DNA of 64,000 nt, taken from an uncultured Gemmatimonadaceae bacterium. Its GTDB lineage: Bacteria > Gemmatimonadota > Gemmatimonadetes > Gemmatimonadales > Gemmatimonadaceae. Position numbers: made by a program. The stretch spans positions 42,344 to 106,343 of the forward strand of contig CAWGJO010000033.1 in assembly GCA_963822945.1 (NCBI GenBank), read 5' to 3'. Every line of letters starts with the position of its first letter. Position 1 is the stretch's first letter. Positions 42,001 to 45,000 of this stretch are shown one piece after another.

Positions 42001-45000
42001 GGTGGTGACGCCCGCGGAGGCGGAGTAGTGCTGGTACTGCGGCGTCGAGACCTTCCACTGCGTGGTGAAGGTCGTGATGCGCGGCGAGGGCTGGAAGGGC
42101 GCGAAGGTCGTGGGGCCGGTCGCCTCAGTGTAGCTCGCGTACGCGGCCGGATCGAAGGCGTAGCTCGACAGCGTGGGGGTGAGCCCCACCGACCAGCCGC
42201 CGCGCAGCGTGACGTCGGTGCGCGCCGACAGCTTGTCCTCGAGCAGGCTCTTGTGGGCGAAGAAGTCGTCGTAGTTCCAGGTGGCGCCCGTCTGCAGGTA
42301 GACGTTGAACCGTTCCACCAGCGCTCCCGGGCCGCCGTACAGCGTGAGCCGGTTCATCACGCTCGGCGACACGATGCCGGTGCGCTGGACGAAGCCGTTG
42401 TCGTCGGCGAAGTCCTTGCCGATGCCGAGGATGTTGTAGTGGAAGCCGAACCGCCGGCCGGTGCCGTCGGCCACGGCCGACCACATGGGCGCCGACGTCG
42501 TGATGCCATTCTGCGTGGTATTGCTCATCACGCCCTGGAACTCGGCGTAGTATTTGCCGCCGAACACGTAGTGGACGTCGGCGTCGGCCACGCGGTTGGC
42601 GCGCCCCCCGCCCACGCGCTCGCTGTAGAACATCCCGGCCGTACTCTGGGAGCCGAAGCCGCGCCGCAGCCGCACCACGTTCACCAGCGGACGCTGGCCG
42701 GTGGCGGTGGTGCTGGTCGCGTCGAGCGCGGAGAGCACGGCGACGTCGGTGCGTCCCACTTTTCCGGTGAGCTTGAGCGCGCCGGCCGGCTGGACGATGG
42801 TGCGCGTGTAGAAGAGCGTGTTCGGGACGTTGAACTGGTCGGAGCCTTCGACGAAGAAGGGCCGCTTCTCCGGATAGTACAGCGCGAAGCGCTCGTCGGC
42901 GGCGATCTGGGTGGCGTCGGCCTCCACCTGCGAGAAGTCCGGCTTCACCGTCCCGTTGAGCACGAAGTTGCTGCCCATGGCCCAGCGCACGTTGCCGCCG
43001 AGCTGCGGCTTGGACGCGTAGTGCCACCCATCATTCGCGGGCGCGCAGCAGGGGGTGCCGTTCACGGTGTTGGTGAGTTCGGGGTTGAGCCCCACCACCT
43101 GGCCGTGGTGCATGCCCGTCATGCCGACGAGCAGTCCCTCCTGGTCGATGAAACTCGCCGACGCCTTGTGCGCCTCGGTCCACGTTTCCTGGTAGCCGTT
43201 GTGCTGCACGTTGCGTTCGATCTGGATGCCCCAATCCTGGCGGGAGGTGCTGGGGTAGCGCAGGCTGCTGAAGGGAATGCGCACCTCGACCTCGTATCCC
43301 CACGGGGTGACGTGCCCCTTGGACTCCCAGATGAAGTCGGCGCTGAGGTCGTTCTGTCCCGGCATGATGTTGGAACCCGGGACGAAGCCGCCCTGTTCGT
43401 TCTTGATTCCGTCGGCCTGGACGCCGAGCGGATTGACGATGAACACGAAGGCGCGGTTGCGCTCGTTGTAGGTGTCGAGCTGGATCTCGGTGTTGTCGTC
43501 GTTCGAGACGTTGTCGCGCTCGGCGAGGGTCGCCCGCACCGCCCCATGGGGTTCGTATGCCTTGATGCCGAAGTAGATGGCGTCGCGGGAGTACCACACG
43601 AGCACTTCGGTGGAGTCGGGGCTGGGCCGCTGGTCCACGGGGGCGTATTCGGAGAACCCGGTGAGCATGGCGGCGTGCTTCCACACCGGCTCGTCCAGGC
43701 GGCCGTCGACGGTGACGGTGTCCTGGATGGACGGCGCGTGCACGGATGTCTGGCCGAGTCGCGCGTTGTAGACGGTCTGCGGGGGCGCACTGACGGCGGC
43801 GAGCTGGAACGCAGCAAGAAAGGGGAGGAGCATGGTGCGGGGAATATATCGCCGGGACCCGCCGCCATCTGCATGCAATCGGTAAGGGGGTGGGCCGCCG
43901 ACCAGCACCGGGAGGGCGCCGACCGGGGGGGCCTCAAGAACGGAGAACCTGGACCTGATGATACGGATGGGCCGGATGAGACGGATGGAATTCGTTGGGG
44001 GTGCGGGAATCGGGTGACGGTTCGCCAAGGCCGTGCGCCATGCTCGGGAATGGCTCAGGAACTCAAGGAAGGAGAGACCACCGGCGCGATCGTCGGCGCG
44101 TTCTATGCCGTGTACAACGGACTCGGATACGGATTCATGGAGAGCCTGTACATGGCGGCGCTGGAGCGGGAGTTGCGGGACCGTGGACACGGCGTGGGCC
44201 GGGAAGTGTACGTGCCCGTGAAATACCGGGGCGTGGAATTGGGCCGGCAGCGCCTCGATATGGTGGTGGACGAGAAGGTCGTAGTCGAGGCCAAGGCCAC
44301 GGAGATTCTTCACCCGAACGCCTCTCGACAACTCTTCGCCTACCTCCGCGCGACGCGTCTGGAGGTGGGTCTCCTTCTCCACTTCGGCCCGCGCCCGCGG
44401 TTCCATCGGGTGGTTTGCCTGAACACCACTGATCCCAACAAGCCCCGCATCCGCTCCGTTTAGTTCCGGTCCCCGCCCCCGCCCCCGCCCCCGCCCCCGC
44501 GGTATCATCGCTCGTTTCCGCGCGGTACCGCGCCGTTTGTAGTTCCCCCGGCATGCTCCGTCTCATCCGTCCCATCCGAATCATCAGGTCCAGATGTTCC
44601 GTTCCTGATGCCCGCTCTGGCGCGCCCCATGCACCGCGGCCAATTTCACCGGGTCTCCCGTCCCGGTCCCCCGATTTCGAGGCTCGTCATGAAGCGCCTT
44701 GTCCATCTGCTCTCTGCCGCCGCTGCGCTGATCTCGTTCTCCCTCACCGCCCCCGCTGCGCTGGCGCAGGGCGAACTGCACGGGCTCAAGCCCGGGCGCG
44801 ATCCGAACCAGCCCATCGACTCGGCGTACACGGCGAAGATCCGCGAGTACACCACCGAGCCCTTCTTCTCGTCGCCCCTGGTGAACTACCTGCCGGCGTC
44901 GAAGACCGTGCCCACCCCGATGGCCGAACTCGGCGACATCGCCGGGGCCAGGGACAACCTGCCGTACTCGTCGCAGGTGTACGCGTACATGCGCATGCTC

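Follow-up and report, generated by a model that had tools for sequence, protein, structure and literature searches.

GxxExxY nuclease genes and their dispersed hairpin repeats in Gemmatimonadaceae: an apparent counterpart of REPIN elements with an unrelated enzyme

The window (the whole stretch of DNA analysed here, 64,000 nt of contig CAWGJO010000033.1 from an uncultured Gemmatimonadaceae bacterium, GenBank assembly GCA_963822945.1, designated G000) includes a 685-bp unit at 43929–44613 in which inverted arms flank an intact gene for a 137-aa protein of the GxxExxY family. That the gene is enclosed by such arms had been the survey's finding, and the ORF at 44050–44463 indeed lies between arms of 66 nt each (43920–43985 and 44557–44622) that are 83 % complementary. 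The unit is located between two divergent genes, for a DUF5916 protein on the minus strand and an M14 peptidase on the plus strand. The features are as follows.

41509–43833, minus strand: DUF5916/CBM9 protein gene, left neighbour; marker of the orthologous site, outside the element
43929–43988, plus strand: left arm; terminus GGGC(A/C)TCARGAACGGA, followed by some three CGGA-cored 9-nt units
43989–44049, plus strand: inner left segment; G-run, common to the gene-less copies
44050–44463, plus strand: GxxExxY gene; 137 aa, minimal PD-(D/E)XK nuclease, PF13366/TIGR04256 profile
44464–44556, plus strand: inner right segment; (CCCCCG)n run, short hairpin centred on GGTACC at 44519–44533, C-run
44557–44613, minus strand: right arm; repeats the left arm in inverted orientation, with complementarity reaching 44622
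44689–46389, plus strand: M14 peptidase gene, right neighbour; site marker, outside the element

The M14 gene is frameshifted in the G000 assembly and goes on to 47773. In the inner left segment, CATGCT a few bases 5′ of the ATG is a possible −10-like candidate, and by eye the start of the GxxExxY gene appears leaderless; a sigma-70 scan of this segment found no promoter. Elsewhere in the window, 1587–2270 is part of a pirin-like gene and is unrelated to the GxxExxY unit.

The window protein matches TIGR04256 (E 2e-31) and PF13366 (E 2e-32, 112.6 bits against a cut-off of 22), and its nearest relatives are labelled Gemmatimonadota or Gemmatimonadaceae. The family, which is entered as 'Unknown' in PMC3424549, forms 9,808 clusters at 50 % identity and includes some tandem doubles, which hint that the protein may act as a dimer. 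In an alignment of 112 sequences E31 and E80 were invariant, and D70, K82, Q94 and Y98 were conserved in at least 90 %. The fold predicted from the single sequence was poor (pLDDT 42) and the alignment-based model (pLDDT 94), a bare PD-(D/E)XK core, was used instead. Its leading fold matches were all PD-(D/E)XK proteins, with modest scores (best Z 7.6, rmsd 3.1, 94 aligned), among them the Cas4 protein SSO0001 (E 1.6e-3, Z 7.5, rmsd 4.0, 101 aligned); BpuSI, MGME1, Hjc and AdnA/AddA were further matches, and the nearest folds also include restriction enzymes. A sequence search of the PDB with the window protein gave no real match. We take the arrangement E...D...ExK...QxxxY to be a RecB/Cas4-type active site, and PD-(D/E)XK sites of this type cut hydrolytically and are unable to rejoin strands. 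The gene is under purifying selection, with dN/dS of 0.05–0.14 within the window clade.

A genome-wide search of G000 with an arm profile, seeded on the window arms themselves, identified 11 inverted arm pairs (E ≤ 8e-4), ten of them gene-less and one around the GxxExxY gene, and beside these a half copy of the arm at C20:513075 (C numbers denote contigs, G numbers genomes). The ten gene-less foldbacks with the same arms that the survey had described are thereby recovered, at 170–202 bp, and GxxExxY is the sole gene inside any CGGAT-type arm pair of this genome. The arm consensus starts GGGCATCAGGAACGGAG and is an array of 9-nt units of about 60–95 nt, made up of a constant terminus, GGGCATCARGAACGGAG, some three CGGA-cored 9-nt units and, innermost, a G-run. 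Nearly all strong arms (22/23) are in inverted pairs, all intergenic. The foldbacks all lie between protein genes, adjoining purH, purK-ackA, dcd, polX, pgsA-cinA, lepA and fdh, among others, and nine of the ten have one end 8–29 nt from a stop codon; the window gene site and one gene-less copy lie between divergent genes. Each foldback pairs over its full length when folded as RNA (z −3.4 to −12.5, 30 dinucleotide shuffles each), and a consensus fold recovered the terminal stem alone because palindromes align poorly. The hairpins showed no strand polarity or G.U bias (21/45 pairs favour the same orientation; G.T 46 versus A.C 59), and comparison of the elements with Rfam gave no family at the cut-off and a single sub-threshold DicF match. 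With a mean pairwise identity of 63 % and a maximum of 71 %, the gene-less copies are old. A search of the genome for the GxxExxY family revealed no gene remnants in them; it gave three matches genome-wide, one copy per clade. The other two genes (C20:330584 and C33:36740) have, as the survey reported, their own inverted arms, of the CACAGA and GAACGGAT types, and dispersed arrays of both these arm types are also present in G000.

Arm type was compared with gene clade in 17 congeneric Gemmatimonadaceae, using arm types taken from inspected loci rather than automatic labels. Counts of CGGAT arms, which come from a model trained on G000 only and are minimum values because scoring was limited to 150 candidates in each genome, were 12–74 in all nine genomes with a CGGAT-clade gene (window clade or G003/G004 clade; the nine include G000) and 0–8 in all seven without one. 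In G001, with 54 CGGAT arms, a cognate gene is missing from the assembly, though the locus there falls on contig ends. CGCGGA arms numbered 37 in G014, 20 in G010, 17 in G008 and 12 in G006, and 0–5 in the other 13 genomes, a test that is partly circular because the model was built from 14 arms of the same four genomes (one of them from G006). The GxxExxY genes of these four form one clade (97/97), and the genomes themselves are scattered (polyphyletic) on the rpoB, lepA and M14 trees. Correspondence extends to sub-variants, in counts that cover the arms of selected loci and not whole genomes: the GATGCTCC form is found in 7/7 dispersed and 6/6 gene arms of G003/G004 versus 3/229 other dispersed arms, and GGACTCSAT in 7/9 dispersed arms of G013 and its one detected gene arm, versus 1/227 elsewhere. 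Across the genus, these observations support a match between the type of the dispersed arms and the clade of the gene that the genome carries, sub-variants included.

At the level of the phylum, at least four matches to a triple-unit pattern were found in 22/54 genomes with the gene versus 3/96 without it; one unpublished genome was left out of this count, related genomes in it are not independent, and the reversed-pattern control was nonzero in several genomes (13 in G153, 12 in G065 and 7 in G000). The arrays lacking a detectable gene are in G094 (16 matches), G099 (15) and G142 (4), in which GxxExxY was not found even with a deep alignment. Beyond the genus, arm type fits the protein tree loosely (8 changes for CACAGA, 7 for CACGGA/CACGAA), on automatic labels that are crude, 20/63 rows being labelled 'none' and some of these having visible arms. 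The Y1 transposase/RAYT domain (PF01797) was not detected in 14/17 genomes (G000 and 13 of its 16 congeners), and a RAYT as mobiliser in the genus was rejected on this ground. The survey's proposal of a REPIN-like repeat family with GxxExxY as its cognate gene is supported by the tracking of gene clade by arm type, by the distribution of arrays and by the lack of a detected RAYT; the protein itself would presumably act on the repeats.

Inverted flank matches were found at 22/31 GxxExxY loci in the genus (p ≤ 0.02 versus shuffles). In a phylum sample, consisting of the 25 loci with full flanks out of 28 given, 17/25 scored at least 32, as did 2/48 shifted and 40/600 swapped controls. In a metagenome and viral set (the best 80 of 593 metagenome loci, from a narrower alignment, and two viral loci; 69 with full flanks), the same score was reached by 52/69 loci, 1/78 shifted and 824/4692 swapped controls, and the locus's own downstream flank was the best partner in 31/69. 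Breadth by named phylum comes from eight plasmid or chromid loci, because a scan of contigs with one protein gave five Gemmatimonadota loci alone. Clear arms are present at four of the eight, those of Bacteroides (CACAGA type), Bernardetia, Sphingomonas and Gemmatirosa, which represent Bacteroidota twice, Pseudomonadota and Gemmatimonadota; the Treponema locus has an 11-bp match, and no inverted arms were found at the Fusobacteria, Prevotella and Persicobacter loci. Clear inverted arms are thus lacking at 8/25 phylum, 17/69 metagenome and 3/8 named loci. The survey's figure of 57/73 loci from named phyla was not reproduced. The gene is rare on mobile replicons: two queries gave 3 and 7 of 72,556 plasmid records and one query gave 0/50,697 phages.

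The relation of gene to arms takes several forms: the gene may be in the loop, as in the window, or have a hairpin on either side, as in G003 and G004; in G016 C12 the arms around it point outward, and alternating clusters also occur. In the lepA-DUF58 spacer of G003 and G004, the gene that the survey had placed there is present, but it is not enclosed in the arms of one hairpin; it sits between two hairpins of the GATGCTCC subtype, both complete in G004, the downstream one degenerate at its outer end in G003.

At the window locus, the GxxExxY gene is present in 11/17 genomes, in the G000 orientation in four and inverted in seven; five genomes lack it, some with terminal stubs left at the site (G011, G012), and in one the locus is unassembled. 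In G014 the M14 flank is 95–96 % identical to that of G000, whereas the gene is 62 % identical and has CGCGGA arms. For window-clade genes dS to G000 is 0.9–1.65, compared with 0.30–0.60 for the adjacent M14 gene; the relaxed codon bias of the GxxExxY gene (GC3 0.80 versus 0.90) could add to this. On the high dS and the low dN/dS, the cassette is kept functional and has probably been exchanged. The GxxExxY genes of G014 and G016 contain frameshifts, which may be assembly errors because the lepA and M14 genes of G000 are also split.

Other sites have also changed arm type in place. In G014, whose rpoB is 94 % identical to that of G000, seven of the ten G000 sites that could be resolved carry CGCGGA elements (the gene site, the two lepA spacers, C20:32643, C5:14489, C27:93791 and C1:51794) and three have the same CGGAT element, the C36 site being left out of this comparison; three further CGCGGA sites of G014 are CACAGA arrays in G000. 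The CGCGGA arms that the survey reported in G010 and G014 were confirmed, in the two lepA spacers, ahead of fdh and at the gene locus. Mosaic elements are found at C1:14511 and C20:842060. The closest relative, G016, has by descent the same elements as G000 at every shared site compared, except lepA|waaF; since these are unchanged and the gene-less copies of G000 are old, no recent event was caught in G000.

Larger populations were available in G009 (29 elements, from 22 stretches) and G001 (22 elements, from 21). Here same-locus pairs average 77 % identity versus 65–67 %, with a maximum of 94 % in G009, where 10/12 such pairs are in the same orientation; only 2/313 distant pairs in G009 reach 80 %. 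G009 has about 37 arm pairs and one cognate gene. A position in G000 could be assigned to 27 of the 51 elements: 11 at known sites, one at a CGCGGA site and 15 in spacers, several of just 0–96 bp, that lack such an element in G000. G006 and G011 have no element in either lepA spacer. Hence, gain or loss of elements does occur, and the number of arm pairs per genome varies from about 6 to 37. Throughout the genus, the sites beside lepA, purH, purK-ackA, pgsA-cinA and fdh remain occupied, and the lepA-DUF58 site has a single CGGAT hairpin in seven congeners. Target-site duplications were not visible at the 11 G000 or the 51 G001/G009 elements, which are old and whose empty-site pairs have diverged; the survey had likewise seen neither a duplication nor a recent jump. 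The main pattern is mostly one of site persistence with the content replaced, plus local copying, and not of free jumping.

The behaviour of these repeats recalls that of REP sequences. REPs and REPINs are inverted doublets tied to a cognate RAYT/TnpA(REP) gene (PMC3116915), RAYT genes are single-copy and housekeeping-like (PMC5581495), REP abundance depends on the cognate gene and the class can switch at syntenic genes, an 'orthoswitch' (PMC3686654), RAYT activity is HUH phosphotyrosine chemistry on GTAG-tagged REPs (PMC8266576), and a REP is defined as a 20–40-nt palindrome tagged GTAG or CGTC (PMC3733652); PMC3337134, REPORTH (10.1101/2024.10.14.618302) and the myRT preprint were also consulted. 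Likenesses are a small single-copy gene flanked by its own repeats, dispersed inverted doublets that form long hairpins in spacers, several gene/repeat classes per genome, abundance tied to the gene, a class switch at syntenic positions and rarity on plasmids and phages; the G000 arms are extragenic inverted hairpin doublets (22/23), and abundance and class switch follow the gene. The differences are that GxxExxY is a PD-(D/E)XK nuclease whereas RAYT is an HUH Y1 transposase, and that the arms are arrays of 9-nt units, about 60–95 nt long, with no GTAG/CGTC tag. The GxxExxY system also has tens of copies, not hundreds, its sites are overwritten in place, and its gene, which may lie in a loop, between hairpins or between arms that point outward, is subject to exchange and inversion at the locus. 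Because RAYT employs HUH phosphotyrosine chemistry and GTAG-tagged REPs, the GxxExxY system lies outside the RAYT/REPIN group; it is REPtron-like in behaviour, with an unrelated enzyme.

TIRtrons, as described in PMC3733652, are similar in having one gene between long inverted repeats and gene-less families in the genome, but their TIRYTs are Y1 tyrosine transposases. Bacterial MITEs are, like the foldbacks, non-coding inverted-repeat copies of a gene-bearing unit, in that case an IS; the GxxExxY unit has no DDE transposase, no target-site duplication was seen, the gene is not multicopy and the copies are about 63 % alike. A multicopy DDE transposase with the same ends was ruled out, as the sole gene-bearing arm pair is that of GxxExxY. 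ORF-bearing 23S rRNA intervening sequences, which encode four-helix-bundle proteins, are likewise long foldbacks with a small ORF in the loop, whereas the GxxExxY copies are intergenic, with a nuclease fold and no strand polarity; an rRNA intervening sequence was rejected because every copy is between protein genes and no Rfam family was found at the cut-off. Among homing enzymes, I-Ssp6803I is of the PD-(D/E)XK type. Free-standing homing endonucleases (PMC2790892) resemble the GxxExxY system in the spread of a nuclease gene by break-induced conversion, as proposed here for GxxExxY, and in allelic replacement at a fixed site. The conserved active site (E31, D70, E80-x-K82, Q94-xxx-Y98), whose catalytic roles are predicted, and the dN/dS of 0.05–0.14 are in keeping with such an enzyme, and the exchange and inversion of alleles at the locus, together with its high dS, are indirect signs that GxxExxY may spread by cutting a gene-less allele. 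The GxxExxY system differs in having dispersed gene-less repeats and no intron or intein, and its putative target is a repeat and not a unique empty allele. A search of full-text literature on GxxExxY, PF13366, PDDEXK_3, REPIN/RAYT, TIRtrons, miniature, cyanobacterial and Gemmatimonadota repeats and homing endonucleases, which did not extend to most subscription papers and bioRxiv supplements, found no link between the family and repeats, and the GxxExxY-linked hairpins look like an undescribed counterpart of REPIN elements.

We propose, as the likeliest explanation, a REPtron-like PD-(D/E)XK system, to which we give an even chance, in which folded arms would be recognised and cut and host recombination would repair the break from another element. 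The GxxExxY protein would recognise the arms, built of 9-nt units of the C-R-(C)-R-G-A type, probably on a folded element (a cruciform or a single-stranded hairpin), and would cut at or close to them. Host recombination is invoked because GxxExxY has no tyrosine or DDE chemistry with which to rejoin DNA; it would mend the break with the other element as template, in a homing-like conversion, the template often being a neighbour in the same operon and sometimes incoming DNA with a GxxExxY gene. Occupied spacers would in this way be overwritten with the arm type of the resident gene, conversion would swap or flip the gene between its arms and yield mosaics and element-gene-element tandems, and a new copy might occasionally be seeded just past a stop codon without target duplication. 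Cutting followed by repair-copying would explain the overwriting, mosaics, local similarity, gene flips, tandems and lack of target duplication. RecA-type conversion alone can homogenise neighbouring repeats, which counts against the model, as do the arrays without a gene in G094, G099 and G142, G001 without its cognate gene and the frameshifted genes of G014 and G016. Also on that side are the loose mapping of arm type on the deeper protein tree, the loci with no clear inverted arms, the partial circularity of the CGCGGA model, the non-independence of related genomes and the lack of a recent event in G000.

The absence from G000 of 15 of the 27 mapped G001/G009 elements, several from spacers of 0–96 bp, could instead reflect REPIN-style transposition, in which the nuclease would excise the folded single-stranded element and host ligase would paste it into sites either new or already occupied, without needing a homologous template. 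The ends 8–29 nt from a stop codon in nine of the ten G000 copies, the lack of target duplication and a copy number of about 6 to 37 pairs would also suit this reading. We consider it unlikely: the PD-(D/E)XK fold is without HUH or tyrosine chemistry for strand transfer, near-identical whole elements are rare except between neighbours (the 2/313 distant G009 pairs at 80 %), mosaics and in-place type changes suit conversion better, and the empty sites may be losses. Alternatively, the hairpins may be RNA or DNA structures selected by the host (3′ stabilisers, terminators or RNase III sites) and subject to ordinary gene conversion, with GxxExxY a passenger homing in, or an RNA processor as in intervening sequences, that does not drive their spread. 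While the lasting occupation of the lepA, purH, purK-ackA, pgsA-cinA and fdh sites across the genus, the copies directly past stop codons and the arrays in 3/96 gene-less genomes fit a host structure, the hairpins have no strand polarity (21/45; G.T 46 versus A.C 59) and no Rfam match, neither lepA spacer has an element in G006 or G011, and the gene site and one copy are between divergent genes. Moreover, arm type tracks gene clade, which is unexpected for a pure passenger, and this explanation too seems improbable.

The survey had itself raised the possibility that the empty copies are remnants of gene loss. On this reading they would be scars only, an arm-gene-arm cassette having inserted at each site and lost its gene later by deletion or by recombination between flanking hairpins. 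The element-gene-element arrangement of G003/G004 would recombine to one hairpin, and a single CGGAT hairpin is what seven congeners show there; the terminal stubs at the gene site in G011 and G012 point the same way. Yet the G000 empties contain no gene remnants (three family matches in the genome), they have a common palindromic interior and a size near 190–210 bp, and G009 has about 37 pairs against one cognate gene. Neighbouring elements are 85–94 % identical, those of G009 reaching 94 %, and G000 has no element at 15/27 mapped sites, all of which makes gene loss as the whole explanation very unlikely.

Carried further, the cut-and-repair model would make GxxExxY the enzyme behind a widespread kind of bacterial DNA, selfish or domesticated, whose movement requires no transposase chemistry: a nuclease of 137 residues would read the 9-nt repeat arms and cut rival or older foldbacks, repair would impose its own arm type, and nuclease/arm pairs would compete for fixed intergenic sites. 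We hold this broader reading tentatively, as somewhat less probable than not. For a very large nuclease family that PMC3424549 lists as 'Unknown', the findings supply a function that can be tested, together with named substrates and non-cognate controls that occur naturally. So small a nuclease, specific for sequence or structure and available in natural variants of different specificity, might also serve as a tool. Evidence of overwriting at fixed sites is added here as a new contribution, and overwriting at orthologous spacers gives direct access to the way in which such repeat populations are maintained and switch type. If the reading is true, the REPIN/RAYT lifestyle would have arisen twice, on unrelated enzymes.

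The two further arm types of the genome under study also occur as gene-less foldbacks, some of which have their arms facing outward, and runs of (AGTTGC)n often lie within or adjoin elements. In two congeneric genomes (G001 and G009), the loop of CGGAT elements contains a nested, outward-facing foldback that is similar to the sequence lying upstream of the gene of the GAACGGA clade. Stretches from two other genomes (G153 and G036) hold BIME-like tandem arrays with units of approximately 320 bp and alternating CACAGA arms, as well as nested double foldbacks. In the lepA|waaF spacer of a further congener (G013, L047), the element appears by eye to be adjoined by a transposase-like fragment.

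L014 (C41:19833-19977), L015 (C27:26883-26998), C21:5503-5840, C27:29815-30049: gene-less foldbacks, other two arm types
L209:1273-1746, L217:1300-1765, L204:1300-1729, L199:1167-1481: foldback nested within CGGAT loop, G001/G009
L315:1197-2014, L316:1223-2173 (G153), L318 (G036): BIME-like arrays or nested double foldbacks

Several ordinary genes are broken by frameshifts in the assembly, and indels there are therefore weak evidence for pseudogenes.

Window 1771-2693: pirin-like gene, split
Window 44689-47773: M14 peptidase gene, split
L011: lepA, split

Spacers also hold CTGTCCGA octamers in tandem, forming 42 clusters in this genome.

Window 1733-1764, 4631-4662, 17356-17387, 30110-30141, 36810-36873, 37853-37900: CTGTCCGA octamer arrays

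An array of this type lies immediately downstream of a four-helix-bundle (PF05635) gene at C21:61534, and a second such gene, at C12:94740, has a tandem array of another kind. The PF05635 genes and tandem arrays possibly constitute a parallel gene/repeat system.

The GxxExxY domain is doubled in tandem in seven proteins of 250-295 aa (P0004, P0014, P0048, P0071, P0086, P0132 and P0144), a hint that the active form is dimeric. Around the GxxExxY genes in L338 (Fusobacteria) and L342 (Prevotella), the repeats, examined by eye, are direct, not inverted. Compact arm-gene-arm cassettes inserted in operons, between fabD and fabG in L343 (Sphingomonas) and after radA in L339 (Bacteroides), should be handy for experimental work.
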